64,000 nucleotides of DNA from an uncultured Actinomycetes bacterium (GCA_963795505.1 CAWCIB010000002.1:7480-71479), one strand, 5' to 3'; shown: positions 10,444-50,014, counted from the first letter of the stretch. Made by a program: numbers and translations. The notes: a model not told the origin generated them from the letters alone.

Positions 10444-10757
10444 CGTCCGGTCGCCCGGGATCACGCCCGCCCGCGGCGCCGGCTCACACTTCCGAGTTCG
10501 TCGCGTTGCACCACTCTGACCGTGATGGCGGGAGAGTGTTGAGTCTCGATCAAAGCGGCGCTCTGGGTGCCCCCGTTTTTGCGCAGGCCGCGGCGAGCGC
10601 GTCCGAGACCTGATCGTGGCTGGCGCCATTCGGGCTAGGCCGATCACCTAATCCGGATGATGCGCGTATCCGGCTCGGCCCTAGAGTCCGCGCGATGGTA
10701 CGCGGGAGCCGTCGTGCGCGACGAGATAGATGAGGCGAATTCAGAGAGGAGCAGGCG

Positions 10758-12116
10758 ATGACGAGTTTGAATACCTCGAAGGCGAGCGATTCACGATCCG
10801 AGCAGGAGCCTCAGGAGATTGCCGTCGAGGCCTACGTCTACCTGTATCCGCTCGTGATGATGGACACCACCCGTCAGCAAATGACGAACATCGAGGCGGG
10901 CGAGCGGCCGGGTTACGGGCCGATGAACACGTTCAACCACATGCGTGCGTTCCCGCCGCCGGAGTTCAAGAGCGTCCCGTGGCCCAACTTCGACACGCTG
11001 TACTCGCTGGCCTGGTTGGACCTAACCAGCGAGCCGGTGATCGTGTCCGCACCGGATACCGGTGAGCGCTACTACCTGCTGCCGCTGCAGGACATGTGGA
11101 CGGATGTGTTCGCGGTGCCCGGCAAGCGCGCCAGCGGCACCGAGGCCGGTCATTTCGCCGTCGTGCCCGCGGGCTGGCAGGGAGAGCTGCCCGCGGATGT
11201 GAGCCGCATCAATGCCCCCACGCCACATGTCTGGATCATCGGCCGCACGCAGACCAACGGCCCGGAAGACTACGACGCCGTTCACACCGTGCAGGACGGC
11301 TACGCCGTCACACCACTCTCGCGCTGGGGCGGGGAGCCGCAGCCGGTCCAGGTGGCGATTGATCCGGCGGTCGACATGACTACTCCGCCGGTCAAGCAGG
11401 TCAATGGCATGCCTGCACTGGCCTACTTTGCCCGCGCGGCCGAGTTGATGCGGCAGCATCCGCCGCACATCACGGACTGGTCCATCTTGGCGCGCATGAA
11501 GCGCATCGGCATCGTGGCTGGCCAGAGTCTTGACAGCGAGACACTCGGACCAGAGATCAAACAAGCGCTCGAAGAGGCCGCGACAACCGGCCTGCAAATG
11601 ATGCAGGCGAAAGTGCCGAAGCTTGCTCCGCTCGTCAATGGCTGGCAGGTGGCCGCTGAAACGATGGGCGTCTACGGCAACTACTACCTGAAACGCGCCA
11701 CGCTCGCGATGATCGGTCTGGGCTCAAACCCGCCGGAAGACGCGATCTACCCGCTGGCATTTGCGGACGGCGACGGAAAGCCACTCAACGGCCAGGACGA
11801 CTACGGCCTCCACTTCGACAAGCAGGAGCTGCCGCCGGTAAACGCCTTCTGGTCGGTCACCATCTACGACCGAGACGGCTTTCAGGTCGCTAACGCGCTC
11901 AACCGCTGCGCGCTCGGCGACCGCGACCCCCTGCAATACAACGCCGACGGCTCGCTCGACCTCGTCATTCAGCACGAAAACCCCGGACCCGAGCACGAGC
12001 CGAACTGGCTGCCAGCGCCACCTGGCCCGATGGCCCTCTTCCTACGCCTCTACGAGCCAAGACCGGAGGTGCTGGACGGACGCTGGAAGCCCCCCGCGGT
12101 GCGGCGGGTGACCTAA
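10758..12116 (+). CDS. DUF1254/DUF1214 domain protein
   Basis: AYVYLYPLV, PNFDTLYSLAWLDL, NAFWSVTIYD, NWLPAP signatures. Confidence 0.9.
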   Translation: MTSLNTSKASDSRSEQEPQEIAVEAYVYLYPLVMMDTTRQQMTNIEAGERPGYGPMNTFNHMRAFPPPEFKSVPWPNFDTLYSLAWLDLTSEPVIVSAPDTGERYYLLPLQDMWTDVFAVPGKRASGTEAGHFAVVPAGWQGELPADVSRINAPTPHVWIIGRTQTNGPEDYDAVHTVQDGYAVTPLSRWGGEPQPVQVAIDPAVDMTTPPVKQVNGMPALAYFARAAELMRQHPPHITDWSILARMKRIGIVAGQSLDSETLGPEIKQALEEAATTGLQMMQAKVPKLAPLVNGWQVAAETMGVYGNYYLKRATLAMIGLGSNPPEDAIYPLAFADGDGKPLNGQDDYGLHFDKQELPPVNAFWSVTIYDRDGFQVANALNRCALGDRDPLQYNADGSLDLVIQHENPGPEHEPNWLPAPPGPMALFLRLYEPRPEVLDGRWKPPAVRRVT

Positions 12117-12120
12117 GGCA

Positions 12121-12300
12121 TGCCTCGCCGGAGGAACGCCGAGCCCGGCTTGCGCTTCGGGCTACATCCAGCCGTCGGCACGGACTAACGACGGCTTCTC
12201 CAACCCGCCGAATCCGGCACTCCTCCGGACGATCGCATTCGCGATTCCGCCGCCTCGCCGCCTGCGATCGCTTCGGCGACGGAGCAGCTTAGCCGAACCT
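12121..12300 (+). repeat. Intergenic degenerate repeat, core GATCGCATTCG-N22/23-CGATC(G/C)CTT
   Basis: Core at 12231 and 12265; same two motifs at 33-34 nt offset at 12846/12879 and 14593/14627. Confidence 0.75.
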
Positions 12301-13945: not shown

Positions 13946-14221
13946 TCAGCCCTTGATCACGTTGTGTACCCGGGCCACCATCGGCTCGCCTGGATCGGCG
14001 CCAAGTCCGGTCATTATCGGAACGAGCGTCGCCCCGAACGCCTCGAATGCCTCCTGCGACTCCCAGATGTCGAAAACCTGGATCTCGCCATTGGTCTCGA
14101 GCGCGACGTGGTACGAGCGTCCTTCAGGCGCGCCCGCACCCGCAGCCTCGAGCTTGCTAATGGCTTCGTCGTACTTGTCCTGCGTGAACCCGCTTGGGGT
14201 GAAGTAGAACCCGAGTGCCAT
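13946..14221 (-). CDS. Small ABM-like hypothetical protein
   Basis: YHVALETNGEIQVFDIWESQEAFEAFGATLVP pattern. Confidence 0.8.
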   Translation of the reverse strand: MALGFYFTPSGFTQDKYDEAISKLEAAGAGAPEGRSYHVALETNGEIQVFDIWESQEAFEAFGATLVPIMTGLGADPGEPMVARVHNVIKG

Positions 14222-14584
14222 TCGATCCCGATCCCTTCCGCACGACTCGCGCGGTCGCTTGTCATGAGTTGCGCGCCGACTCTATCGCGCCGCGGCGGAC
14301 CTCATTCGAAACCTCATCGCCATCGATCGCAGCAGCAATCACGTGATGTCTGGGCGACGAACGGGGCCCGGCCTCACTGGCCTTAGCTCGCAGCGTGGAC
14401 GTGCGGACACGATGCTCATAAAGGCATCTTCCGTCGCGTGAACCGCACGCCTGAACTGAGCTCGACACTGGTCGTATTGGTGCGGCGCACTCATGCGTTC
14501 GCGCCGGGGAAGACCTGCTCTTCGCCCGCGTCGGGCCTCGGCGGTTGTCGCTCCGAAGACCTGCCTTGCGCGGAAAGCCCGAGT

Positions 14585-14645
14585 GCGCTGACGATCGCAT
14601 TCGTCCACAACGCAGCGAACAGCTCACGATCCCTTCGGCGACATT
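14585..14645 (+). repeat. Intergenic degenerate repeat copy
   Basis: gacgatcgcattcg 14590-14603 is identical to 12228-12241; cttcggcgac follows 43 nt downstream in both. Confidence 0.8.
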
Positions 14646-14666
14646 GCGGGCGCCAGCCGGAAGCGT

Positions 14667-15188
14667 CTAGCTGCCGAAGAGCTGGAACGGCCAGGGGCCG
14701 TCGAGCACGATCCGTCCTGGCTGAGTCGGGTGCGCACTCGTCTCTAGCGTGATGAGGATCTTGCGGTAGCGCCCCAGGTGCGCGGGTAGCCGGCGCACCA
14801 CGATCACGACCGTCTTCTTCACCGGTGTCGGAAGTGCTCGGATCGACTTGACCAGGTGCGCGTGGCCCGGGCCGCTCCATAGCCACACGGCATAGACCTT
14901 CGGGGCACGGACGGGATTCAGACCCTGAGCGCCGATCTCCAGCAGGTAGCGGTGACGCGCACGCACCACCTCCCCAATTCCAAGCGCTGAGTGCTTCGCC
15001 CCGGGTGACGACAGGTTGATCTGTTGTATCGGCCGCGCCCCTGGAAACGGCGAAGGCACACAGCCGCAGCTCGGAGCCATCGCGCTGGCCGCAGCCGATG
15101 ATCCCGCAAAAGCGACCGCGAGCACAATCGCCCAGGCCACCGAAGAGAACCGCCCGGGCTGGTGGGCCGGCCGGTCGCTATCCCACAC
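14667..15188 (-). CDS. Exported protein with anti-sigma-K (RskA) C-terminal-like domain (start uncertain)
   Basis: Signal-like AWAIVLAVAFAGSSAAASA; YAVWLW...YRKILITLETSAHPTQPGRIVLDG resembles the RskA extracytoplasmic domain. Confidence 0.55.
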   Translation of the reverse strand: MWDSDRPAHQPGRFSSVAWAIVLAVAFAGSSAAASAMAPSCGCVPSPFPGARPIQQINLSSPGAKHSALGIGEVVRARHRYLLEIGAQGLNPVRAPKVYAVWLWSGPGHAHLVKSIRALPTPVKKTVVIVVRRLPAHLGRYRKILITLETSAHPTQPGRIVLDGPWPFQLFGS

Positions 15189-33347: not shown

Positions 33348-34013
33348 TTGAACGGCAGCGCCAAGCGCTTGGTCGGCGTCGTTGTCTGCACCGTAGTCGC
33401 AGCTGCGGCGATCGGCCTTTACATAGGGCTGTATCTGACAAACGTTCCCGGGTCGGTCGCCGCGACCACCGATGCTTCGGGCGCGCATCTGTACCTCGCC
33501 ACGGTCCCGGCCGCGGAAGCGTCAGATCCCCACAACACGTGGGTGTCGTTCTACGCAGTCGACGCGAATGCGGGCAACTGGCGCCACGACTCGACATACG
33601 TCGTCCCCGCGAACACGGTCCTGACCGTGACGATCTATCAGTACGACTCAGCGTCGGGGCTGCGTAACGAGTTCCTGAGCCAGGCCACCGGGACGCAGGG
33701 CGGGACGTTCGCGCTCGACGGCAAGGCGGTGCCCGACATCGATCCGACGCAGGCCGCGCACGGGTTCGCGGTCCCGCAGTGGGGTCTCTCGGTCCCGCTC
33801 TACGGCGTCTCGACAAGCGCCAAGAATCCTTGTAGTCAGGCGCCCTGCTCGCTGAGCAACGACCATCACACGATCACGTTCACGATCAGGACCCCGGGCA
33901 AGGGCTTGTATCGCTGGCAGTGCATCGTGCCGTGCGCCGCGGGCTTCATCCAGGGCTATGGAGGGCCGATGCAGACGGTCGGCTATATGGGCGGCTTCTT
34001 CAAGGTCGTATGA
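33348..34013 (+). CDS. Membrane-anchored cupredoxin-like protein with H...C-x3-C...M-x5-M motif
   Basis: TTG start after GGAG; N-terminal TM; AAHGFAVP and TFTIRTPGKGLYRWQCIVPCAAG...GPMQTVGYMGGFFKVV C-terminus; stop overlaps the subunit II start. Confidence 0.7.
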   Translation: MNGSAKRLVGVVVCTVVAAAAIGLYIGLYLTNVPGSVAATTDASGAHLYLATVPAAEASDPHNTWVSFYAVDANAGNWRHDSTYVVPANTVLTVTIYQYDSASGLRNEFLSQATGTQGGTFALDGKAVPDIDPTQAAHGFAVPQWGLSVPLYGVSTSAKNPCSQAPCSLSNDHHTITFTIRTPGKGLYRWQCIVPCAAGFIQGYGGPMQTVGYMGGFFKVV

Positions 34014-34855
34014 CAGACCAGCGGCCCCACTGGCGAAATGTCGTGTTGCTGTGGCTGCTGGCCAACGTGATCATGCTGCCGATCGTCGTGTTCGTGCTCG
34101 GCCCCGGGCTACCGCCGGGCAACGGGACGGTCGAGTCTCACGGGCAGGTTGTCGACAACACCGTGCTGCTGACAATGGCGACGCCGTTCGCGCTGGCGGT
34201 GCTCGTCTACTTTGCGTACGCGATCTGGGCGTTCCGTGAGCGTGAGCCAGATGTTTACGTGGACGGACCGGCGGTCCGCGGCCACTCCGGTGTGCAGTTC
34301 TGGTGGCTGATGATCACGACGACGACGGTGCTCATTCTCGCCGCCTACGGTTCTGTCAGGCTGCTGGCCGATGGCTCCGGGGGCGGCCAGGGCCCGAATC
34401 CGATCGGCGTGCCGGCGGCGGCCAAGACCCATGCCCCGCTCCAGGTCCAGGTGATCGGCCAGCAGTGGTTCTTCACCTATCGCTTCCCGGGCTACGGCGG
34501 TGTAGAAACGCGCGACCTCGAGCTCCCGACCGGCACCACGGTCGAGTTCCACGTCACGTCGCTTGACGTCATCCACTCCTTCTGGGCCTACCAGCTCGGC
34601 GTCAAGGCCGACGCCAACCCAGGCATCGACAACATCGCTTACGTGACGACGCGCGGCCCGCTGACGTTCAACGTGCGCTGCGCCGAGCTGTGCGGCGTCT
34701 GGCACGGCTACATGTTCAACTCGGGCGTCGTGGTGCCCAAGGCGCAGTTCGCCACCTGGATCGCACAACAGCAGCAGCAGAACGCCCCAGCGACCAAGAA
34801 CCTGCTGCCGTACTCGAAGCAGTACTTCCCGACCCCGTTGAGGAGGGCTGGATGA
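34010..34855 (+). CDS. coxB: Cytochrome c oxidase subunit II
   Basis: Two TM helices; DVIHSFW and CuA motif CAELCGVWHGYM. Confidence 0.95.
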   Translation: MTDQRPHWRNVVLLWLLANVIMLPIVVFVLGPGLPPGNGTVESHGQVVDNTVLLTMATPFALAVLVYFAYAIWAFREREPDVYVDGPAVRGHSGVQFWWLMITTTTVLILAAYGSVRLLADGSGGGQGPNPIGVPAAAKTHAPLQVQVIGQQWFFTYRFPGYGGVETRDLELPTGTTVEFHVTSLDVIHSFWAYQLGVKADANPGIDNIAYVTTRGPLTFNVRCAELCGVWHGYMFNSGVVVPKAQFATWIAQQQQQNAPATKNLLPYSKQYFPTPLRRAG

Positions 34856-36741
34856 GCACGATCGCCGCCTCTGTGCCGGCCCCGCGCGCGGGCTTCAGAC
34901 AGTTCTTCGGCTTCAACATGCTGACCGGGATCTTGCTCGGGATTGGCGGCTGGTTCCTGGGCTACTTCATCGGCACCCACCTCCACGGGGTCGGGCTGAA
35001 GTACTACACGGCCACGGCCGGCGAGAACGACATCGGGATCATGCTCGGCTACTTCCTCGGCGTGGTCGGCTTCCTCGTTGGCCTCGGGTTCGCGAACTAC
35101 CCGCTCAAGCGGATGCTGGGCCACCCTGCGAGCCTCGCCGAGCGCGAGGCGAAGGAGTTCGGCCTGCTGCGGTACTTCAGCTTGTCGACCGACCACAAGG
35201 TCGTCGCGAAGCAGTACATGGTCGGAATCGGGGTGTTCTTCTTCGTCGGTGGGCTGAACGCGATGCTGATCCGCTCAGAGCTCCTGCAGCCCAACGTGCA
35301 CGTGTTCGGCGCCAACCAGTACCTGACGCTGGTTGGGCTGCACGGCTCGATGATGATGGGGATCATGACCTCGGGGATCCTCGGCCCATTCGCGAACTGG
35401 CTCGTTCCCGTGATGATCGGCGCCCGGCGGATGGCGTTCCCGCGGATCGAGGCGCTCACGTTCTGGATCCTGATGGCCGGCGCGGTGATCCTGATCACGA
35501 CGATCTTCTTCGGGGGCTTCCAGACCGGCTGGACGGGCTATCAGCCGCTCGGCGACCAGGGCACCGCCGGCTACGACGCATACATCGGGTTCTTCTCGTG
35601 CGTCGGCATCTCGATGACGCTTTTCGGCTTCAATCTGGTGGCGACGATCATCACGATGCGGGCGCCCGGGATGACCTGGTCGCGACTGCCAATCTTCGTC
35701 TGGGCTACGTTCGCGACCGCCATCCTGATGATGCTGGCGGCGCCGATGCTCGTTTCCGCGCTGCTTATGGGGGCGATGGACCGCACCGCGCAGACCGCGT
35801 TCTACATCGCCGGTCAGGGCGGAAGCTCATATCTGTTCCAGAACTTATTCTGGGTATTCGGACATCCCGAGGTGTACATCCTGGCGTTGCCCGGCTTCGG
35901 GATCGTGCTGGAGCTGTTGCCCGTGTTCGCGCGCAAGCCGCTGTGGGGCTACCGGCTTGCGGTGGCCGGGTTGCTGGGCGTCAGCCTGCTGAGCTTCTTC
36001 GTCTGGCAGCACCATCTGTTCGTATCGGGCATCAACGCCGACCTGCGGCCGTTCTACATGCTCTCGACCGAGCTGATCTCGCTGCCGACGGGATTCATCT
36101 TCCTGTGCGCGATGGGAACACTGTGGCGCGGGCGAATACGTCTGACGGTGCCGATGCTGTTCTGCTTAGCGTGGGCGTTCAACTTCCTGTGGGGTGGGAT
36201 CTCGGGTGTCTTCAACTCCGACACCCCGAGCGACGTCACCACGCACGGGAGCTTCTTTGTGATGGCGCACTTCCACTACACGATCATGGGCGGGCTCGTG
36301 TTCGCGTTCTTCGCCGGGATCTACTACTGGGTACCCAAGATGTACGCCGTCAAGTTCAACGAGCGGCTGGCCAAACTGCACTTCTGGGTGATGTTCATCG
36401 CCTTTAACTGCACGTTCGCGCCGCTGTTCGCGCTCGGTTTCCTGGGCATGCCACGACGCGTTGTCACCTACCCGGTCAGCTTCCAAGCCCTCAACGACTG
36501 GGTGTCGGTGTCGGCGTACGTGCTCGGGAGCTCGATGCTGATCTTCCTGGTCAACGTGGTCTGGTCGGTAGTGCTCAAGCGCGAGCCGGCGGAGGAGAAC
36601 CCATGGCACGCCAAGTCGACCGAATGGCAGCTCCCGACACCGGTCCCGCTGCACGACTTTGACCGTATCCCACGATTCGAGCCAGACCCCTACCCATACG
36701 GGGTCGAGCCCGCGCCGGCGCTTGCGGGCGGGAGCGAGTAA
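34852..36741 (+). CDS. coxA: Heme-copper oxidase subunit I (A-family, two extra N-terminal TM helices)
   Basis: LHGSMM, GHPEVY, WQHHLF, AHFHY, GMPRR. Confidence 0.97.
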   Translation: MSTIAASVPAPRAGFRQFFGFNMLTGILLGIGGWFLGYFIGTHLHGVGLKYYTATAGENDIGIMLGYFLGVVGFLVGLGFANYPLKRMLGHPASLAEREAKEFGLLRYFSLSTDHKVVAKQYMVGIGVFFFVGGLNAMLIRSELLQPNVHVFGANQYLTLVGLHGSMMMGIMTSGILGPFANWLVPVMIGARRMAFPRIEALTFWILMAGAVILITTIFFGGFQTGWTGYQPLGDQGTAGYDAYIGFFSCVGISMTLFGFNLVATIITMRAPGMTWSRLPIFVWATFATAILMMLAAPMLVSALLMGAMDRTAQTAFYIAGQGGSSYLFQNLFWVFGHPEVYILALPGFGIVLELLPVFARKPLWGYRLAVAGLLGVSLLSFFVWQHHLFVSGINADLRPFYMLSTELISLPTGFIFLCAMGTLWRGRIRLTVPMLFCLAWAFNFLWGGISGVFNSDTPSDVTTHGSFFVMAHFHYTIMGGLVFAFFAGIYYWVPKMYAVKFNERLAKLHFWVMFIAFNCTFAPLFALGFLGMPRRVVTYPVSFQALNDWVSVSAYVLGSSMLIFLVNVVWSVVLKREPAEENPWHAKSTEWQLPTPVPLHDFDRIPRFEPDPYPYGVEPAPALAGGSE

Positions 36742-36744
36742 ACC

Positions 36745-37371
36745 ATGGAAGCATCAGCCTCAGCCCCCGCCTCCTCCGCAGTCGAGACCGAGCCACTCGA
36801 GTGGCAGCCGCGCGCGGTCTGGCTCTCCGGGCGGTTGCTGTGCGGCTCGATCTCGTTCTTCTTCGCCTCGTTCCTGTTCGCCTACTTCTATCTCCAGGCG
36901 CTCGATGAAAATCACAACTGGAAGATCGGTGCCGTGCACCCGTCGAAGGGTCTCGGCGTCGCGATCATGGCGCTGTTCCTGTTCGGGGCGATCGTCTACC
37001 GGATGTCTGTCAGCCGTCCCGAGGTCGACGCGGTGGCCGCCGGCGCGATCGCAGTCATCTTTGCGCTGATCGCGATCGGGCTCCAGTTCTACGAGTACAC
37101 GACGCTCGGCTTCGGCGCCGCTTCAGGCGGCTACGCGGCGGTCTTCTACGGCTGGACGTCGCTGTATGCGATCGTCGGCCTGATGGGCGCCTACTGGATC
37201 GAAATCCAGGTAGCCAGTCTGTGGCGCATGCGGCGTGAGGGCCCGCGGGACACCGACATCCCCGCCGGCGAGCAAGAGCTCATCCGGGCGGGCATCGAGT
37301 CGTCCTCGTTCTACTGGGCGTATTTCGTCGCGATCGGCGTGCTCGCCTACATCGTCCTCTACATCGTCTAA
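36745..37371 (+). CDS. Short cytochrome c oxidase subunit III-like protein
   Basis: FFASFLFAYFY, LQFYEY..LGF.....GYAAVFYGWT, FYWAY; position after subunit I. Confidence 0.8.
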   Translation: MEASASAPASSAVETEPLEWQPRAVWLSGRLLCGSISFFFASFLFAYFYLQALDENHNWKIGAVHPSKGLGVAIMALFLFGAIVYRMSVSRPEVDAVAAGAIAVIFALIAIGLQFYEYTTLGFGAASGGYAAVFYGWTSLYAIVGLMGAYWIEIQVASLWRMRREGPRDTDIPAGEQELIRAGIESSSFYWAYFVAIGVLAYIVLYIV

Positions 37372-37376
37372 GAGCG

Positions 37377-38189
37377 ATGCTCTCCCGCTGGTCGCTCGAT
37401 CCGGGTCTCGTCTACGTCGTGATCTCGGCGGTGTTGTATGCGCTCGGCGCGCGCGGCCGCTTGAGGCCCAAGCCGCTCGAGGCGGTCTCGTTCTATGCCG
37501 GGCTTGTGGCGATCGTGGTCGCGCTCGACTCACCGATCGACTCCTATGCAGATCAGCTGTTCTGGGTCCACATGCTCCAGCACATACTGCTGCTGACGAT
37601 CGCGCCTCCGCTGATCCTGCTCGGGCGTCCGTGGCCGCGGATGTGGCGAGCGCTGCCGCTCGGCCCTCGCACGTCGCTGGCACGGACCGTTGCACACGCG
37701 CGCTGGGCGGCGCCGCTCCGCGGGCTCTCGCACCCCATTCCGGCGTGGATCCTGTTCAACGCGACCGTCATCGGCTGGCACATTCCGGCCGCCTACGACG
37801 CGACGCTCACCAACGGCGCCGTCCATGCCGTCGAGCACGCGATGTTCTTCTTCGCGGGGCTCCTGTTCTGGGCACGCGTGATCGATCCTGGCCCGTTGCG
37901 CCCCAGGCTCGTGTGGCCGGTGCGGGTCGCATACGCGGTCGGCGCGATGGTCGTGGGCTGGGTGCTCGCGATCACGCTGGTCGTGGTGCCCCACGCGGTC
38001 TACGGCTACTACGCTGCGCTTCAGACGCGCCCCGGCGGTATCAGCGCGGTCACCGACCAGCAGCTGGCCGCCGGCATGATGTGGGTCCCCGGATCGCTCT
38101 CATACACGATTACTTTCCTGATCGGCTTCTACCGCTGGCTCGAACCGGATCATGCGGGTAGCGGGCCGCGGCCTGCAGTCACTACATGA
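37377..38189 (+). CDS. ctaG: Caa3-type CtaG cytochrome oxidase assembly protein
   Basis: LFWVHMLQHILLL.IAPPLILLG, WHIPAAYD, HAVEH...GLLFW, DQQLAAGMMW. Confidence 0.9.
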   Translation: MLSRWSLDPGLVYVVISAVLYALGARGRLRPKPLEAVSFYAGLVAIVVALDSPIDSYADQLFWVHMLQHILLLTIAPPLILLGRPWPRMWRALPLGPRTSLARTVAHARWAAPLRGLSHPIPAWILFNATVIGWHIPAAYDATLTNGAVHAVEHAMFFFAGLLFWARVIDPGPLRPRLVWPVRVAYAVGAMVVGWVLAITLVVVPHAVYGYYAALQTRPGGISAVTDQQLAAGMMWVPGSLSYTITFLIGFYRWLEPDHAGSGPRPAVTT

Positions 38190-42834: not shown

Positions 42835-42904
42835 GAGCGCAATCGTATTCAGCTGACACCGGAGCGCGTCAGGCGGCTTGAACGCCGCGGCTAGGCTAGG
42901 ACAC

Positions 42905-44557
42905 ATGAGCGAGCAGCGGCGCGCCAGGATCCTGGTCGTCGACGACGAGCCGGCGGTGCTGGCTGCCGTCGCACGAGATCTGCGAGGCAAGTTCGGTGAG
43001 CGATACCGGATCGTGCGCGCCGGCTCGGGCGAGGAAGGGCTCGATGTCCTACGGGAGCTCGTGCGCCGCGGCGAGCAGGTGGCTCTCCTGATCGCCGATC
43101 AGCGCATGCCCGGCCTGTCCGGGACCGAATTCCTCGTACAGGCGCGCCAGATCGTTCCGACGGCTAAGCGCATGCTGCTCACGGCGTACGCCGATACCGA
43201 GGCCGCGATTGACGCGATCAACGAGGTCGATCTCGATTACTACCTGCTCAAGCCCTGGGACCCGCCAGAGGAGAAGCTGTTTCCGGCCGTCGATGACCAG
43301 CTGCATGTCTGGGAGGCCGGTGCCGCACTCGAGTCCGGCGGCGTTCGACTGATCGGCCACCGCTTCTCGCGCTCGACCCACGAGCTGCGCGATTTCCTCG
43401 CCCGCAACCAGGTCCCGGCGCGCTGGCTGGATGTCGAGCGCGACGCCGAAGCCCGTCAGCTGCTCAAGGTGGCGGGCGTCGAGGACGACCGGCTGCCGGT
43501 AGCGCTAATGGAGGACGGCCATGTGCTCGAGCGCCCGACGGTGCTCGAGCTCGCCGAACGGCTCGGCGTTGCCGGCCAACCCGCGTCCGAGCACTACGAC
43601 CTCGTGATCGTCGGCGGCGGGCCCGCGGGCCTGGCGGCCGCCGTCTACGGGGCTTCCGAGGGACTGAAGACGATCATGGTCGAGCGCGAGGCGCCCGGCG
43701 GCCAGGCCGGGCAGTCGAGCCGGATCGAGAACTACCTGGGCTTTCCGCGCGGACTGAGCGGCTCGGAGCTGACTCAACGGGCCACGATCCAGGCGCGTCG
43801 TCTCGGCGCCGAGCTCCTGACACTCCAGGACACGACGGCCTTGCGCGTCGAGGGAGCGGGGCGGATCGTCGAGCTCGCCGACGGCGGCACGCTCAGCGCC
43901 TCGAGCGTGCTGATCGCCTCAGGCGTCTCCTACCGCCAGCTCGACACGCCCGGTTTCCCGGAGCTGACGGGACAGGGGATCTATTACGGGGCCGCGGTCA
44001 ACGAGGCGCGCGATTGCCGGGACCAGCACGTCGTGGTCATCGGCGGTGCCAACTCGGCGGGCCAGGCGGCGGTGTATTTCTCGCAGTGGGCCGGACGCGT
44101 GACGCTCCTCGTGCGCGGCGACTCGCTCGAGAAGTCGATGTCGCACTACCTGATCGAGCAGATCAGCGCGCTCGACGGGGTCGAGGTTCGTACCCACACA
44201 GAGGCCATCGGCGCCGAAGGGAACGGCCATCTGGAGACGCTGAGGATCCGCAACGGAGATGGGTCGGAGTCGGTCGAGAAGGCCGATGCCTGCTTCGTGT
44301 TCATCGGTGCGCGGCCGCTGACCGATTGGCTCGAGGGCGTTGTCGCCCGCGATGAGCGCGGCTACATCCTCGCGGGCCTCGACGTCAAGCAGGCCGCCTG
44401 GCCGCTGGCCCGCGACCCGTTCCCGCTCGAGACCAATGTGCCTGGGGTGTTCGTTGCGGGCGACGTACGGGCCCGCTCGATCAAGCGCGTCGCCAGCGCC
44501 GTCGGCGAAGGATCGATGGCCGTGTCGCTTGTTCATCAATATTTGGCGGAGGCATGA
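42905..44557 (+). CDS. Response-regulator receiver fused to thioredoxin-reductase-like FAD oxidoreductase
   Basis: VVDDEP, IADQRMPG, LLKPW; GGGPAGLAAA, SSRIENYLGFP, GGANSAGQAA, VFVAGD. Confidence 0.93.
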   Translation: MSEQRRARILVVDDEPAVLAAVARDLRGKFGERYRIVRAGSGEEGLDVLRELVRRGEQVALLIADQRMPGLSGTEFLVQARQIVPTAKRMLLTAYADTEAAIDAINEVDLDYYLLKPWDPPEEKLFPAVDDQLHVWEAGAALESGGVRLIGHRFSRSTHELRDFLARNQVPARWLDVERDAEARQLLKVAGVEDDRLPVALMEDGHVLERPTVLELAERLGVAGQPASEHYDLVIVGGGPAGLAAAVYGASEGLKTIMVEREAPGGQAGQSSRIENYLGFPRGLSGSELTQRATIQARRLGAELLTLQDTTALRVEGAGRIVELADGGTLSASSVLIASGVSYRQLDTPGFPELTGQGIYYGAAVNEARDCRDQHVVVIGGANSAGQAAVYFSQWAGRVTLLVRGDSLEKSMSHYLIEQISALDGVEVRTHTEAIGAEGNGHLETLRIRNGDGSESVEKADACFVFIGARPLTDWLEGVVARDERGYILAGLDVKQAAWPLARDPFPLETNVPGVFVAGDVRARSIKRVASAVGEGSMAVSLVHQYLAEA

Positions 44558-45969
44558 GCGCGACGGCAGTGACACTCCACGATCTACGACGGATCGATCT
44601 GTTCGACGATCTCGACGACGACGAGCTCGCCAAGTGGGTGGAGGTCGCGCAGTGGCACGAGGCCGAAGCCGGCGGGGTGGTGATCGAAGGGGGACACGAA
44701 CCCGACGGCCTCATATGCCTGCTCGAAGGCATCCTTCAGATGCAGGTGCCCGACGGGCAGCGGCTCCAGGTGGTCGGGCGCCAGACGGCGCCAACGTGGA
44801 TCGGGGCCGTCCCGACGCTCACCGAGGCAAAGGTCGCCGCGCGCATGATCGCGGTCACCGATGTGCGCTGGGCGCTGATCCCAGCGGTCGAGTTCCGCCA
44901 CCTCGTGCTCGCCAATCCGGACCTCCACCAACGGATCATGCGCCAGGTCGGACCAGTGGTCAGGCGCATAACCGAGATGGAGCAGAACAGGGAGCGTCTG
45001 GCTGCGCTCGGCACGATGGCCGCCGGCCTGGCGCACGAGCTCAACAACCCGGCCGCGGCGGCGCGCAGCGCCGCGGGTCAGCTCTCCACAGCCCTCCAGG
45101 TGATCGGCTCGACGTTGCGGGAGTTCGTCCAGGCCGGTGTCGAGCGCGAGGACGCAGCTCGGATCGCCGACCTTCGCGATCAGGCGGTGAGTCAGGCTGC
45201 CGCGCGCGAGGAGTTCTCGGGCCTTGAGGCATCCGACGCCGTCGACGACATGCTCGACCGCCTCGAGGCGATGGAGATCGGGGGCGCGTCGCAGATCGCC
45301 GAGCCCCTGGCGCTCGCGGGGGTCGATCAGGAGTGGCTCGACAAGGTCCAATCACTCGCCGGACCCGCCACTCCCGCCGCGCTGCGGTCGGTCGCCGTGT
45401 CAATCGACGCCCAGAAGCTCGTCGACGAGCTGTGTGAGTCGACCCAGCGCATGAGCTCGCTCGTCGGCGCCGTCAAGGCCTACGCATACATGGACCGCGG
45501 TGGCGTCGTGAAGGTAGACATCCACGAAGGGCTCGACACGACGCTCACCATCCTTCACCACAAGCTCAAGCACACAAAGATCGCGGTCAAGCGCCAGTAC
45601 GACCGCAGCCTTCCCCAGCTCATGATCTACGGCTCAGAGCTGAACCAGGTCTGGACCAACCTGCTCGTCAACGCGATCCAGGCGCTCGGCCAGAGCGGCA
45701 CGATCACGATTGCCACCGAGCGCGATGGCGACTGCGTCCTTGTGAATATCTCCGACGACGGCCCCGGAATCCCCGAGGACGTCCGCGAGCGCGTGTTCGA
45801 ACCTTTCTTCACGACCAAGGGCGTGGGCGAGGGCACTGGCCTCGGCCTCGACACCGCCAAGCGGATCGTCGAGGACCGCCACGGCGGCTCGATCACGTTC
45901 GACACGGGCGAGCACGGCACCAGCTTCCATGTCTGGCTTCCCATCAAAGAAACGGAGAAGGCGAAATGA
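44554..45969 (+). CDS. cNMP-binding domain sensor histidine kinase
   Basis: N-terminal cNMP-like domain; LAHELNNP, NQVWTNLL.NA, DDGPGI, FFTTK, GTGLGL. Confidence 0.93.
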   Translation: MSATAVTLHDLRRIDLFDDLDDDELAKWVEVAQWHEAEAGGVVIEGGHEPDGLICLLEGILQMQVPDGQRLQVVGRQTAPTWIGAVPTLTEAKVAARMIAVTDVRWALIPAVEFRHLVLANPDLHQRIMRQVGPVVRRITEMEQNRERLAALGTMAAGLAHELNNPAAAARSAAGQLSTALQVIGSTLREFVQAGVEREDAARIADLRDQAVSQAAAREEFSGLEASDAVDDMLDRLEAMEIGGASQIAEPLALAGVDQEWLDKVQSLAGPATPAALRSVAVSIDAQKLVDELCESTQRMSSLVGAVKAYAYMDRGGVVKVDIHEGLDTTLTILHHKLKHTKIAVKRQYDRSLPQLMIYGSELNQVWTNLLVNAIQALGQSGTITIATERDGDCVLVNISDDGPGIPEDVRERVFEPFFTTKGVGEGTGLGLDTAKRIVEDRHGGSITFDTGEHGTSFHVWLPIKETEKAK

Positions 45970-46283
45970 GTGGCTGTAGCCACCTGGACACGATCACTGT
46001 CTTCGAGCTCCCCGAAAGCGTCACCGGCTGCGAGGACTGTCTGCGCGAGGGCAGCGTCTGGATGCACCTGCGGATCTGCCTGAGCTGCGGTCACGTCGGG
46101 TGCTGCGACGACTCGCCCAACAAGCACGCCAGCGCTCACCACCACGACTCCGGCCACGCGCTGATCCGCTCGCTCGAGCCCGGCGAGGATTGGAGCTGGT
46201 GCTTCGAGGACGAGCTGGCGATGCGGATCACCGACATCCGCGGCGAGACTCGGATCCCGCCCTCGCCGATGCTCAGCGGCTGA
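45966..46283 (+). CDS. UBP-type zinc finger protein
   Basis: CSH...CEDC...LRICL.CGHVGCCD.SP.KHA..H...H...EDW.WC. Confidence 0.92.
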   Translation: MSGCSHLDTITVFELPESVTGCEDCLREGSVWMHLRICLSCGHVGCCDDSPNKHASAHHHDSGHALIRSLEPGEDWSWCFEDELAMRITDIRGETRIPPSPMLSG

Positions 46284-46881
46284 CCTGTCGCCTGAGGCGC
46301 AGCGCGAGCACACCGCCCGCGACGAGCACCGCGACGACTCCAAGCGCAATCGGGAGCGCCGCCGAGCCGCCGCCGCCTCCGCCGGCCGTGTCCGATGTGT
46401 GGCCGATCGGGTGTCCCGCCGCCTTGGCCAGCCGCGGCACGGCGGCGATCGCCGCTCGGACCAGATCGTCGCTTTGTGTACCGGTTGGCTTCGGGAGCGA
46501 GATCGTCGGTAGCCCCCGCGTTCCGTATCCGTCGGACATCACGACCAGCAGCGGTGCGCGCGCGACGACAAAGCTCAGCTCCTGGTAGAGGAACTTGGCG
46601 TACGTCTGGGGCTTGCCGAAGAAGCTCGGCACGGCGCCGAGGTCGGTCGGGGAATCGATCAGCGCGATTTTGATCGGGAAGTGGGCGCGCTGGGCGGCGA
46701 TCGCCTCCGCGTTGAGCGCCTTCGCGAGCGCGGTCGAAACGGGAGGGCTGTATGGGTAGAACACCTGGGCGCCGAGCAGCACGTCGCTGGCGGGGTCCGC
46801 GTCGGCGAGCGCTGTCGCCGGGAGCACCGCGAAGAGCGCCGCCGCGATGATCGCCGACAGCCCCCTAGCCACCGAACGCAT
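46273..46881 (-). CDS. Exported, C-terminally anchored hypothetical protein (D.DPASD family, paralog A)
   Basis: Signal peptide ...PATALA|DADPASDVL; C-terminal TM plus RLRR. Confidence 0.75.
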   Translation of the reverse strand: MRSVARGLSAIIAAALFAVLPATALADADPASDVLLGAQVFYPYSPPVSTALAKALNAEAIAAQRAHFPIKIALIDSPTDLGAVPSFFGKPQTYAKFLYQELSFVVARAPLLVVMSDGYGTRGLPTISLPKPTGTQSDDLVRAAIAAVPRLAKAAGHPIGHTSDTAGGGGGGSAALPIALGVVAVLVAGGVLALRLRRQVSR

Positions 46882-48433
46882 AGCTCGCGATGTCCCCGTC
46901 GAGCGTCCCTTGCGACACGTACTGGCCCGTGTGTACGTACGCGACCTTGCCGGTCCGGCCGATGAAGACTGTCGTCGGATAGCCGATCACTCCGCCGGGG
47001 ACGATCGAAGGGAGGTTGGTTCTGCTGGCCTGGTAGCTCGGGTAGCTGACCAGGTGGGCCGCGAGGAACGCGCGCGCGTCGCCGGAAGTGTCGTCGGTGT
47101 CGGCGCCGAGGAATGCGACCTGGCGGCCGTAGCGGGTAGACGCCGAGGCAAACAGCCCAAACTCGGCCTTGCACGGCGGGCACCACGATGCCCAGACGTT
47201 GAGCACGATCGGGTAGCCCTTGAGCGCTCGGATCCGCGCGGCGAGCGCGGGCTCGCTGCCGAGCAGTTGGCTTGACTGGTCGTGAAGGCCGGCCAGCAGC
47301 GGCGGTGAGCCGGCGAGCGCCGCCTTGGCGTTCGCGGGCGGTCCGGCCGCGCGCGCAAGGGCCTCCTTGACCCGGGCGACGAGCTTGGCCTCGGTTGGCC
47401 AGCCCAGCGTGGAGACGTCGTAGTACCAGGCGATCTGCCCGCTCGAGGACGTGACCATCAGCCACGGCAGATCCTGGACCTCGTAGCCGTCGCCGAGGCG
47501 CCCGTCCCGATCGCTTGCGATCGCATAAGGCAGCGGACTGCGCCATGTGGTCTCAAAGCGCTGGAGCGCTCCTGGTGGCTCGACGCTGGTCTCGTCTATC
47601 GCCTCGACCCGAGGCAGGCCGTGGGTGCGCGCGAACGCGTCGTAATGGGCGAGTCCCTCAAGGCCCGCACGCAGCGAGGTGACCTCCTGATCCCAGGTTG
47701 CAAAGAACAGATACAACCGCGGCGGCCCCGGCCGCGGCGCGATCCCCTTGATCCGGGTGTAGCTCAAACGCGAATTGACGGGCGGGCGGGCCGGCAAGAG
47801 CGTCGAGATCTCCTGAGCGACGACCTGCCCGAGCTGCCCCACGGCCGCGTAGGACTGCTGGGTCACATACAGCCGGGCGAGGTGTCCGTTCGGCCCGATC
47901 ACGAACAGCGCCGGCGTATGGTCGATCTGCCCCGCATTGATCGCGACATCTATGCCATACGCCTTCCAGACGCGCTCGAGCTGCGGACGCGGCGCGGTCA
48001 GGAACTGCCAAGCGTGGAGCATGCCGTGAAGTTCCGAGTAGGAGAACACGTCCTTCACGGCGGTCGCGGTCGGATTAGCGTCGATGCCCAGGAGTTGCAC
48101 GCTCCGCCCGGCACGCCCGAGCATCGCCTTGGCGTCGAGCATCGCGGTCGTCGTGAGCGGGCAGATCGTCGTGCACTCGGAGTCGTTGAAGGCCAGCACT
48201 ACGACCTTGCCGTGGAACGAGCGGAGCGACACGGGGTGCCCGAACTGATCGGTGAGCGTGAAGTCGGGCGCGGGTCGCGACAGCGGCGTACCTGGGTCGA
48301 GGTAGGGGTTGCTGGCCAGGCCGGCGTTGGACGAGGTACCCGCCGTCCCCGCCACGATCAGCGCGACGATCGCGGCGACCACCACGACGGCGAGCCCGCT
48401 GGTAACCGCGATCCTTGGGCGCCCGAATCTCAT
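46865..48433 (-). CDS. SCO1/SenC domain + degenerate thioredoxin domain + TlpA-like redoxin
   Basis: N-terminal anchor; DFTLTDQFG, CTTICP (CxxxC), IDHT; central FFATWD; WASWCPPC. Confidence 0.88.
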   Translation of the reverse strand: MRFGRPRIAVTSGLAVVVVAAIVALIVAGTAGTSSNAGLASNPYLDPGTPLSRPAPDFTLTDQFGHPVSLRSFHGKVVVLAFNDSECTTICPLTTTAMLDAKAMLGRAGRSVQLLGIDANPTATAVKDVFSYSELHGMLHAWQFLTAPRPQLERVWKAYGIDVAINAGQIDHTPALFVIGPNGHLARLYVTQQSYAAVGQLGQVVAQEISTLLPARPPVNSRLSYTRIKGIAPRPGPPRLYLFFATWDQEVTSLRAGLEGLAHYDAFARTHGLPRVEAIDETSVEPPGALQRFETTWRSPLPYAIASDRDGRLGDGYEVQDLPWLMVTSSSGQIAWYYDVSTLGWPTEAKLVARVKEALARAAGPPANAKAALAGSPPLLAGLHDQSSQLLGSEPALAARIRALKGYPIVLNVWASWCPPCKAEFGLFASASTRYGRQVAFLGADTDDTSGDARAFLAAHLVSYPSYQASRTNLPSIVPGGVIGYPTTVFIGRTGKVAYVHTGQYVSQGTLDGDIASYAFGG

Positions 48434-48440
48434 CGCTCTA

Positions 48441-49430
48441 TCAAAGCGCGACCGCAGCGGCGGGGGCCACCTCGCGCTCGTCGTAAAGGCGGAACACCAT
48501 CAGGACCAGGCTCGCAGCGCAGCCCAGCGCCAGCACCGCGGCGGTGCGGGCCACAAACGCCGGCACGGCGATCAGCACGAAGCCGTTGGTCAGGGTCGGA
48601 ATCAGCTCAAGCCCTTCCCAGAGCGCCACGACTGCGATCACGAGGTACGAGAAGAAGCCGGGGCGTCGAAACGCAACGTGGATAAGTCCCCATGCAACGA
48701 AGACGAGCACGAGCACGAGCTCGATCAGCTGACCGACCGAGACGGATGGGCGTCCATGGAGTCCGAGCCCGACAGCCGCGACCGCGATGGCGGCCAGGGC
48801 GGCGAGAGCGAGCATGCGGGCGATAGCGCGGTCGAGCGCCGCGTTCTTGACACGCCAGGCCGCGAGCATGCACAGAATCAACACCGCGATCGGCCAGAAC
48901 CAGACGATCGATGGTGCGCCCGCGTGCCACAGCCCGCCTGTGATCGCGCTCAAGCTGCCGTTGACCAGGATCGGTACGCGCCAGGTGCCGACAAACGATG
49001 CTCCAGGCGCCAGCGCGACTGCCGCTAGGGCATGCAGCCGGCCGTCGTGCCAGCGGTACTGGTGCGCGTTGGTCACCATCCGCCACTCCGGGGGCGTCTG
49101 CGGGCCGAGGCTGGGCGGCGGTGTCTGAGCGACCGGGCTCTGGTTGAGGTAGTACATCGCCGAGTTGTGGTTGACCTCGACGCCCGCCGGCGAGAAACGC
49201 AGATAAGGGGCGCCGCGGTAGTCGAGCACGACGACTGTGTCGGAAGCCGGTGCGTGCAGCCACATCAGCTGGTCGCCGTCGATGACCTTCGCACCCAAGC
49301 CGGGCGGAATGGCTTGGGCCCGCGCTTGGTAGTCGAGCCCGACAGGCGCGATCGGTCCGTGCGCCTGCGCGGCGGCCGGGAGTGCCAACATCACCAACAG
49401 TGAGCCGATCGCTACCGCGCGCCCTCGCAT
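48441..49430 (-). CDS. Exported/membrane hypothetical protein with predicted mature N-terminal His
   Basis: Signal ...LPAAAQA|HGP; YRWHDGRLH motif; about five C-terminal TM helices. Confidence 0.75.
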   Translation of the reverse strand: MRGRAVAIGSLLVMLALPAAAQAHGPIAPVGLDYQARAQAIPPGLGAKVIDGDQLMWLHAPASDTVVVLDYRGAPYLRFSPAGVEVNHNSAMYYLNQSPVAQTPPPSLGPQTPPEWRMVTNAHQYRWHDGRLHALAAVALAPGASFVGTWRVPILVNGSLSAITGGLWHAGAPSIVWFWPIAVLILCMLAAWRVKNAALDRAIARMLALAALAAIAVAAVGLGLHGRPSVSVGQLIELVLVLVFVAWGLIHVAFRRPGFFSYLVIAVVALWEGLELIPTLTNGFVLIAVPAFVARTAAVLALGCAASLVLMVFRLYDEREVAPAAAVAL

Positions 49431-50014
49431 TGCTCGCCATGTTGGCACTCGTCGCCGGTCTCTCAGCCGGTCCTGCTCGAGCCGACGGCGACCCAGCCTC
49501 GGACGTACTCGCGACGCAGTCGCTGTTTCTGCCCCAGGACGCAGGCGTCCCGGCAGGCCAGCAGGCGCAGCTTCAGGCGCTGCTCGGCGAGGCCGGGCGC
49601 GCCGGTTATCCGATTCGCGTGGCGCTGGTCGCCTCAGCAACGGATCTAGGCTCCATCACCGCCCTCTGGCGCCAGCCGCAGCTATATGCAAGGTTTCTTG
49701 GCCAGGAACTGTCGCTCGTCTACCGCGGCCCCCTGGTGGTCGTGATGCCGACCGGCATCGGCGTGTACAACGCCCATCTTTCGAGCGCCCCTGGCGGATC
49801 CGGCCTCGCAGGCGCGGCCGAGGCCGTCGTCATACGCCTTGCGGCTGATGCCGGCCACTCGCTGGCGACCCCTTACGCGCCGCTCTCGAGGGGGAGGAAC
49901 CGGAGCGACGCGACGCCATGGATCGCGTTCGCGATCGGCGCGGCGCTGGTCGCCCTGGCTTGGGGCTTGAGCCTCCGGGCGCGTCCGCTGCGCCTCAGTG
50001 CAGGCGGATCTTGA
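49400..50014 (+). CDS. Exported, C-terminally anchored hypothetical protein (D.DPASD family, paralog B); start 49400 or 49439
   Basis: ...GPARA|DGDPASDVL; shares PI..AL..S.TDLG, PQ.YA.FL.QEL and VVM..G.G with paralog A. Confidence 0.75.
   Translation: MSRSLPRALALLAMLALVAGLSAGPARADGDPASDVLATQSLFLPQDAGVPAGQQAQLQALLGEAGRAGYPIRVALVASATDLGSITALWRQPQLYARFLGQELSLVYRGPLVVVMPTGIGVYNAHLSSAPGGSGLAGAAEAVVIRLAADAGHSLATPYAPLSRGRNRSDATPWIAFAIGAALVALAWGLSLRARPLRLSAGGS

Follow-up and report, generated by a model that had tools for sequence, protein, structure and literature searches.

A Thermoleophilia gene cluster with a Sco-thioredoxin-TlpA-like protein and two unnamed exported families, probably one half of an extracytoplasmic copper set

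In Bacillus subtilis, YcnI and YcnJ together with Sco supply copper to haem-copper oxidases (PMC8424229, PMC13344008, bioRxiv 10.1101/2025.05.23.655588). YcnI binds Cu(II) via its N-terminal His (PMC8424229), and YcnJ supports oxidase function at copper limitation (PMC13344008). Maturation of the CuA centre in Bradyrhizobium and Rhodobacter relies on a Sco chaperone and the thiol reductase TlpA (with PCuAC), and in Streptomyces the genes for Sco, a chaperone, a CopCD-type transporter and a DyP peroxidase are coupled in the sco operon (PMC4736821). N-terminal-His domains on permeases also bind Cu(II) (PMC12537917). Beyond a few model bacteria, the routing of copper to extracytoplasmic enzymes is incompletely known, and the soil Thermoleophilia are almost unstudied. 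Here we describe a cluster of four genes (A, B, C and D; positions 46273-50014) in a 64,000-nucleotide stretch of DNA (CAWCIB010000002.1:7480-71479, hereafter the window), which is part of the 3.8-Mb genome of a soil actinobacterium of the Solirubrobacterales (Thermoleophilia).

We propose, with a probability of roughly 0.7, that the cluster constitutes the local half of an extracytoplasmic gene set, shared across the Thermoleophilia, which acquires copper and matures copper enzymes. We favour this reading because three independent lines of evidence point to copper: the Sco and TlpA-like chemistry of protein B, the conserved synteny of the cluster in relatives with YcnI and YcnJ genes, whose families are known as copper proteins from experiments, and the fusion of the family of A and D (named DPASD after its motif) to Sco. 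An original prediction, made from the sequence of the window, had likewise read the cluster as a copper-delivery system; its case is strengthened by the Sco and TlpA-like domains of B, by YcnI and CopC-CopD-YtkA synteny (48/80 loci) and by the DPASD-Sco fusions described below.

Genes C, B and A follow each other on the minus strand and are tightly packed, with a gap of 7 bp between C and B and an overlap of 17 bp between B and A. Gene D is oriented divergently to C. The G+C content at third codon positions (GC3) is 0.78-0.87 across the four genes and thus of coding type. All four genes that had been predicted were found, with their domains and motifs, in the following arrangement:

46273-46881, minus strand: gene A, exported and C-terminally anchored DPASD-family protein of 202 residues (open reading frame with a GC3 of 0.87); DADPASD mature end at 46783-46803.
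46865-48433, minus strand: gene B, membrane-anchored three-domain protein of 522 residues (Pfam, NCBIfam and PDB matches, Cys inventory).
47867-48289, minus strand: Sco domain of B, with CxxxC at 48161-48175.
47339-47836, minus strand: Cys-less thioredoxin-like domain of B, from hhalign against the TlpA-like domain.
46919-47311, minus strand: TlpA/ResA-like domain of B, with WCPPC at 47171-47185.
48441-49430, minus strand: gene C, 329 residues; probable true start ATG at 49430 (MRGRAV...).
49362-49430, minus strand: signal peptide of C; the codon of the predicted mature N-terminal His24 is at 49359-49361.
48915-49361, minus strand: beta-sandwich domain of C, with WHDGRLH at 49032-49052.
48477-48914, minus strand: predicted five-helix membrane domain of C.
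49382-50014, plus strand: gene D, second DPASD-family paralogue, 210 residues; start GTG at 49382 (alternative GTG at 49400), DGDPASD mature end at 49484-49504.
33348-38189, plus strand: oxidase operon, a candidate client (Pfam: cupredoxin partner, COX2, COX1, a subunit III-like gene, Caa3_CtaG).

Protein B has one N-terminal membrane helix ahead of its domains, which places the TlpA-like domain outside the cytoplasm. Residues 56-184 matched the Pfam family SCO1-SenC (PF02630; 51.5 bits, cut-off 22.8) and residues 402-504 the family Redoxin (PF08534; 61.4 bits, cut-off 26.6). B contains four Cys residues in total, C87 and C91 in the CxxxC motif CTTIC and C418 and C421 in WCPPC (residues 417-421). 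The copper-ligand His of the Sco domain is H172 in QIDHT, which aligned to QVIHQ of B. subtilis Sco1 (PDB 1on4). The C-terminal domain aligned with structures of CycY, ResA, DsbE and TlpA, with the top scores for the ResA, DsbE and CycY families. We call it TlpA-like only, because its score against the TlpA equivalog model (NCBIfam NF047696) was 32.8 bits and far under the cut-off of 230; as judged from these scores, it is a TlpA-like domain and no TlpA orthologue. The middle region (about residues 200-365) gave no database match. It was colinear with the TlpA-like domain, with ATWDQEV aligned over ASWCPPC (hhalign P=4×10−4, 115 columns), which fits a degenerate Cys-less thioredoxin-like duplicate. 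Pfam, the Cys inventory and hhalign thus agree with the three domains first proposed for B (Sco with CxxxC and His, Cys-less thioredoxin domain, WCPPC redoxin). By these domain assignments, B unites a Sco copper chaperone and a TlpA-like thiol reductase in one membrane-anchored chain. In this B resembles the Sco and TlpA pair of Bradyrhizobium and Rhodobacter; unlike in these organisms and in Streptomyces, both parts are on one polypeptide, with an additional Cys-less thioredoxin-like domain.

We compared the cluster with 80 loci encoding relatives of C, each with 10-kb flanks. A D-type gene was divergent from C in 76 of the 80, and a CopC-CopD-YtkA (YcnJ-type) gene was present in 48, with YcnI (DUF1775) also in synteny with C. 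A His-rich lipoprotein gene (y287) was detected at 42 loci, gene A at 34 and a B-type gene within 10 kb of C at 33. The locus L016 carries, in this order, D, divergent C, two small genes, YcnI, CopC-CopD-YtkA, the lipoprotein, a 769-residue DPASD-Sco-thioredoxin-TlpA protein and A, which corresponds to the ancestral gene order. In the relatives, genes for a true YcnI and a CopC-CopD-YtkA protein, the types known from the YcnI/YcnJ system, are surrounded by C, D, A and the Sco fusion. Unlike in B. subtilis, Sco shares a chain with a TlpA-like reductase (in relatives also with DPASD), and no YcnK-type regulator was seen. The two small genes between C and YcnI of L016 encode a 197-residue lipoprotein-like protein (10987-11580) and a 201-residue membrane protein with His motifs (11659-12264); they had no Pfam match and are absent from the window's cluster. 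Four candidate conserved neighbour reading frames (x236, x187, y306 and y372) were discarded as Arg-rich wrong-frame artefacts of high-GC DNA, and GC3-based calls were used instead.

Across all reading frames of the 80 loci, we counted 113 stand-alone DPASD domains, 20 DPASD-Sco-middle-TlpA proteins, 14 DPASD-Sco proteins and 11 Sco proteins without DPASD; of the 45 Sco reading frames, 34 thus carry a DPASD domain fused N-terminally to Sco. The co-occurrence with Sco that had been anticipated for the cluster was borne out by these fusions and by the B-type genes near C. The fused proteins have the order signal peptide, DPASD, helix, basic cytoplasmic loop, second helix, Sco. With two membrane helices between them, both parts would therefore face the outside of the cell. 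An apparent triple fusion of C, DPASD and Sco in L033 was rejected as a stop-free overlapping frame.

The genome of the window contains a second locus on another contig (contig C8 of G000, positions 619000-638999; L084), which encodes YcnI, CopC-CopD-YtkA, the lipoprotein and a 779-residue DPASD-Sco-thioredoxin-TlpA protein. Since the YcnI/YcnJ half and a DPASD-fused Sco lie on this contig, the ancestral set is split over two loci in this genome. On this gene content, the four window genes are not self-contained and form one half of a larger set. L084 also encodes a 219-residue unknown protein (14049-14708, minus strand); its His-rich lipoprotein (287 residues; 10675-11538, minus strand) had no Pfam match. 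CcmE and CcmF are near this copper locus.

In 9 of the 80 relatives, P19/EfeO-like and DyP-like (DUF7405) genes replace CopCD, some of them with CtaG. This cassette, exemplified by L005 (13773-16789) and present at eight other loci, encodes a protein with a C-terminal P19/Fe2+-transport domain (PF10634/DUF7350), a DUF7405 DyP-like protein and sometimes Caa3_CtaG, and recalls EfeO/EfeB and the Streptomyces sco-dtpA operon. In the Streptomyces lividans operon sco-ecuc-SLI_4212-dtpA (PMC4736821), Sco similarly has a CopCD-type transporter and a DyP-type peroxidase as neighbours. PCuAC (PF04314) was missing from all 21 genomes searched in the lineage (this genome and 20 relatives), while the search detected it in four control genomes. 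The PCuAC-less genomes have Sco and TlpA-like domains. Unlike the Bradyrhizobium, Rhodobacter and Streptomyces systems, the lineage thus has no PCuAC/ECuC, and TPM-like DPASD proteins are added.

Gene C encodes a predicted exported membrane protein. Its signal peptide ends in AAAQA and is followed by HGP (AQA/H), and cleavage before His24 was inferred from the AxA rule. In an AlphaFold2 model (mean predicted local distance difference test score, pLDDT, 82), residues 34-170 form a beta-sandwich and residues 175-328 five long helices. Searches of Pfam, NCBIfam and PDB sequences returned noise only, also at lenient thresholds, and a whole-chain fold search of the PDB gave no match under E=0.4; the top fold matches (TARP, CD47 and four-helix copper storage proteins) were dismissed as architecture look-alikes or generic helix bundles. 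The family has 2217 representatives of 50%-identity clusters at E≤10−3. Conservation was counted on the best 150 of these. Ala was found at −1 in 79/79 representatives and at −3 in 77/79, and His at +1 in 72/79, in keeping with the mature N-terminal His that had been predicted for C. Trp127 (103/106), His128 (94/105), Arg131 (103/105), Asn87 (99/102) and Asp53 (77/88) were also conserved, and the motif around Trp127 reads WH(D/E)xR in the family. His24, His128, Asp53 and Asn87 are conserved candidate ligands for a copper site of the histidine-brace type. The AxA/H end and a WHDHR-type motif persist in relatives of 29-38% identity, which represent other families of the class. Since the key motifs of the cluster proteins are invariant or nearly invariant in the homologue alignments, they are not due to chance.

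Most of these relatives of 29-38% identity have a short form of C, with the ectodomain and one anchor helix, and so do about 50 of the 91 genomes in the taxonomic family to which the window belongs; the long form, as in the window, was found in only 6 of the 91. Distant short-form relatives (29-38% identity) adjoin CopCD, YcnI and CtaG genes or sit downstream of COX2-COX1. In L101 and L102 (G159 and G147, another genus of Thermoleophilia), a short-form C gene is directly 3′ of a distant COX2-COX1 pair whose COX1 is 22-25% identical to that of the window.

C resembles YcnI in that its signal peptide is directly followed by a conserved His and its short form has one C-terminal anchor. C differs in that it has no sequence or profile similarity to DUF1775, CopC or CopD, and in the window its membrane domain consists of five helices. 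A diverged YcnI (DUF1775, PF07987) was rejected, as there was no Pfam match and a comparison by hhalign with the 48 YcnI sequences of these loci scored 10.3, under the shuffled controls. CopC (PF04234) and CopD (PF05425) likewise gave no Pfam match and hhalign scores of 10.0 and 15.7, inside the shuffled range. The combination of signal peptide, His1, beta-sandwich ectodomain and polytopic membrane domain is also that of Ang-1 and Ang-2 on HupE/UreJ-2 permeases (PMC12537917). Ang domains bind Cu(II) through a mono-histidine brace, and Ang-2 is restricted to Actinomycetota (RbAng-1a is PDB 9GCE; PMC12537917). The HupE/UreJ-2 model (PF13795), however, had no match in 33 C members at E up to 10, and in hhalign against an actinobacterial Ang-2-type protein the signal peptide and the His alone aligned, so that an Ang-2 plus HupE/UreJ-2 identity was also rejected. 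Ang-2 neighbours metallophosphatases, whereas C neighbours copper chaperones and oxidases. At the level of sequence, C represents a novel family that is unnamed in Pfam and NCBIfam.

Proteins A and D, which are 42% identical over 176 residues (E=4×10−26), are paralogues, and a third DPASD copy is on another contig of the same genome. They share the mature end AxA/D(A/G)DPASDVL and a C-terminus with a Gly/Ser linker and one hydrophobic helix; the alignment thus agrees with the original description of a pair of exported paralogues with C-terminal anchors. In the alignment of the family, the AxA/D(G/A)DPASD end was invariant, the blocks DLG, PxxYA and VVM-x-GYG were conserved, and an AAAGHP motif was present. 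More than 1385 homologues were found, and every named one is annotated as 'hypothetical'. DPASD was found inside the class only, in 20 of 151 class genomes and in 6 of 301 genomes sampled across the phylum, all of them members of the class. A and D gave no match in Pfam or NCBIfam, and lenient thresholds in these databases and among PDB sequences yielded noise only; a set of 30 family members was likewise without any Pfam match. Both C and A/D therefore match no Pfam or NCBIfam model, as expected for the two undescribed families that had been suggested, with A/D probably TPM-like.

The TPM assignment comes from structure comparison. An AlphaFold2 model of A (pLDDT 83) has an alpha/beta fold, and 7 of the 9 best Foldseek matches in the PDB were TPM domains, with a probability of up to 0.98 but E values of 0.02-0.3 and TM-scores of 0.3-0.55 (PDB entries listed for TPM: 2kpt, 5anp with two chains, 3pvh, 3ptj, 2kw7, 8c7i and 7tbr). 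The TPM model PF04536 did not match any of 30 DPASD members at E up to 10, and it finds nothing in the genome. A profile comparison of DPASD with 11 actinobacterial PF04536 domains with trimmed signal peptides gave a weak match (P=0.003, 101 colinear columns; 20 shuffles, 0.09-0.84). The untrimmed comparison (94.7% probability) was set aside, as the signal peptides had inflated the value. Because trimming weakened the match to P=0.003, the fold link is probable but unproven. A and D have the layout typical for TPM proteins such as TLP18.3, Psb32, MOLO-1 and AscF (signal peptide, domain, flexible Gly/Ser linker, C-terminal membrane helix), and TPM sequences are very divergent (PMC13456599). We consider it fairly probable that A and D have a strongly diverged TPM fold. 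Unlike TPM proteins, they are missed by the Pfam model, and neither an invariant mature end of the type D-x-DPASD nor a fusion to Sco has been described for TPM proteins.

The original prediction had also taken the cluster to serve, probably, the oxidase and cupredoxin upstream. COX2 of this operon carries the CuA motif CAELCGVWHGYM and so needs a Sco-type loader. Operon and cluster are ~8 kb apart, with eight unrelated genes between them (encoding an HAD hydrolase, GH65, SnoaL, DUF2630, a receiver-TrxB fusion, a kinase, zf-UBP and others). The gene of the cupredoxin partner (33348-34013) served as our marker for this oxidase type in two genome samples, with the following results:

Class, 151 genomes: marker in 17; long-form C with the marker in 10/10; DPASD in 13/17 marker genomes.
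Family, 91 genomes: marker in 10; long-form C with the marker in 5/6; DPASD in 9/10 marker genomes.

Fisher tests, which ignore phylogeny, gave p=10−4 to 2×10−7 at genus level in the class sample and, in the family sample, associated the marker with long-form C at p=3×10−5 and with DPASD at p=9×10−6. Long-form C occurred together with DPASD in 10/10 genomes of the class sample and 6/6 of the family sample (p=1.5×10−4). C of any form did not track DPASD in the family sample (p=0.63). Within genus g56, two genomes had all three features, one had none and one had DPASD only; exceptions to the marker link were genus g168 and genome G307. We read the oxidase link as real, statistical and not obligate. 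The predicted service to the oxidase thus holds as co-occurrence with the marker in both samples; it falls short in the exceptions and in adjacency, which was found at only 4 of the 80 loci.

Several observations weigh against the copper reading or its oxidase branch. In the remaining 7 of 79 representatives of C, the residue at +1 is Asp, and the N-terminal segment of the AlphaFold2 model has a pLDDT below 50. Since C is without detectable homology to YcnI, CopC, CopD or Ang-2/HupE-UreJ at the profile level, its copper site is an analogy. TPM domains are without settled function, and AscF at least binds no metal (PMC13456599). The disregard of phylogeny in the Fisher tests, one genus with the marker but without long-form C, one genome with long-form C but without the marker, and the rarity of oxidase genes within 10 kb (4/80 loci) count against the link to the oxidase.

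An alternative to copper supply is copper tolerance, in which Cu(II) would be sequestered in the periplasm and copper-damaged thiols repaired, in line with the historical 'copper resistance' role of CopC and CopD. CopC-CopD genes accompany C at 48 of the 80 loci, thiol reductases are able to repair copper-induced disulfide stress, and no copper-efflux or supply-specific regulator was seen near the cluster. However, Sco is a CuA assembly factor and DPASD is fused to it, and the CopC-CopD-YtkA layout is that of YcnJ, which aids the oxidase at copper limitation (PMC13344008). The co-occurrence with the oxidase marker and the absence of CopA/CopZ/CsoR-type genes from the cluster also speak against tolerance, which we regard as unlikely. 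Slightly less likely still is a general extracytoplasmic module for thiol-disulfide exchange or cytochrome c maturation, in which C and A/D would be envelope proteins for another metal (Ni, Fe or Ca) or none. The best scores of the TlpA-like domain with the ResA, DsbE and CycY families, the CcmE and CcmF genes near the second locus, the iron-type P19/EfeO-like and DyP-like genes that replace CopCD in 9 of the 80 relatives, and the binding of Ni or Fe by Ang domains (PMC12537917) would be consistent with such a module. Against it, the reductase shares one polypeptide with a Sco domain whose CxxxC-His copper site is intact, the neighbours are predominantly the copper proteins YcnI and CopCD, and no ccm genes were found in the window.

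The cluster could also be a by-product of rearrangement, with C-D and B-A as separate modules without a common task and the proximity of the oxidase coincidental. In most relatives C and B/A are ~5 kb apart, with other genes in between, the flanking genes are not conserved, and an oxidase operon is rarely close (within 10 kb at 4 of 80 loci). Yet the four genes keep their order and neighbourhood in dozens of genomes, and the intervening genes are themselves copper genes. As long-form C was found with DPASD in 10/10 and 6/6 genomes and C, B and A are closely spaced in the window (7-bp gap, 17-bp overlap), we consider a mere rearrangement the least probable of these explanations, and very improbable.

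Under the preferred reading of copper acquisition and enzyme maturation, C would expose His1 after cleavage of its signal peptide. By analogy with YcnI, CopC and the Ang domains (PMC8424229, PMC12537917), His1, the His of WH(D/E)xR and Asp53 or Asn87 may bind Cu(II) at the outer face of the membrane, giving C a putative role in Cu(II) capture. C might then exchange copper with the YcnI/YcnJ route and Sco, as donor or as recipient. The TlpA-like domain would hold the CxxxC of Sco and the CuA cysteines of subunit II in the reduced state, and Sco would load the CuA of oxidases, probably also of the alternative oxidase 8 kb upstream. From the fusions, we infer that A and D are partners of Sco; the membrane-anchored, TPM-like DPASD protein may be a Sco-bound scaffold or metal-handling accessory in a lineage without PCuAC. 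Among TPM proteins, several help to assemble membrane complexes or act as accessory factors of them (PMC13456599). A bolder version is tentative, and we think it rather doubtful as a whole: C would be the founder of a new family of N-terminal-His copper-binding ectodomains (~2200 clusters at 50% identity, in single-anchor and five-helix forms), and the TPM-like DPASD would be an obligate Sco partner that replaces the missing chaperone or scaffold for assembly of the alternative-oxidase CuA without PCuAC.

At their 5′ ends, the longest reading frames of C and D overlap by 31-49 bp (window 49382-49430), likewise in relatives such as L005. This overlap suggests leaderless or interleaved divergent transcription; a promoter scan found nothing. 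On the other side of the cluster, a receiver-TrxB-like fusion, a kinase with a cyclic-nucleotide-binding domain and a zf-UBP protein are encoded next to A (42878-46283). The end of the zf-UBP gene is convergent with that of A (11-bp overlap), and three relatives (L038, L066 and L080) likewise have a zf-UBP homologue after A.

Our findings put forward two candidates for the study of copper routing in this class: a large, unnamed and conserved N-terminal-His family that co-travels with YcnI, CopCD or oxidase genes, and a TPM-like domain that is repeatedly fused to Sco. The Sco-thioredoxin-TlpA chain provides a natural constraint on interaction partners. If the function proposed for the DPASD-Sco fusion is true, it would give a concrete biochemical context to TPM domains, which are largely without one, and the set would represent a route for building CuA in a lineage without PCuAC.

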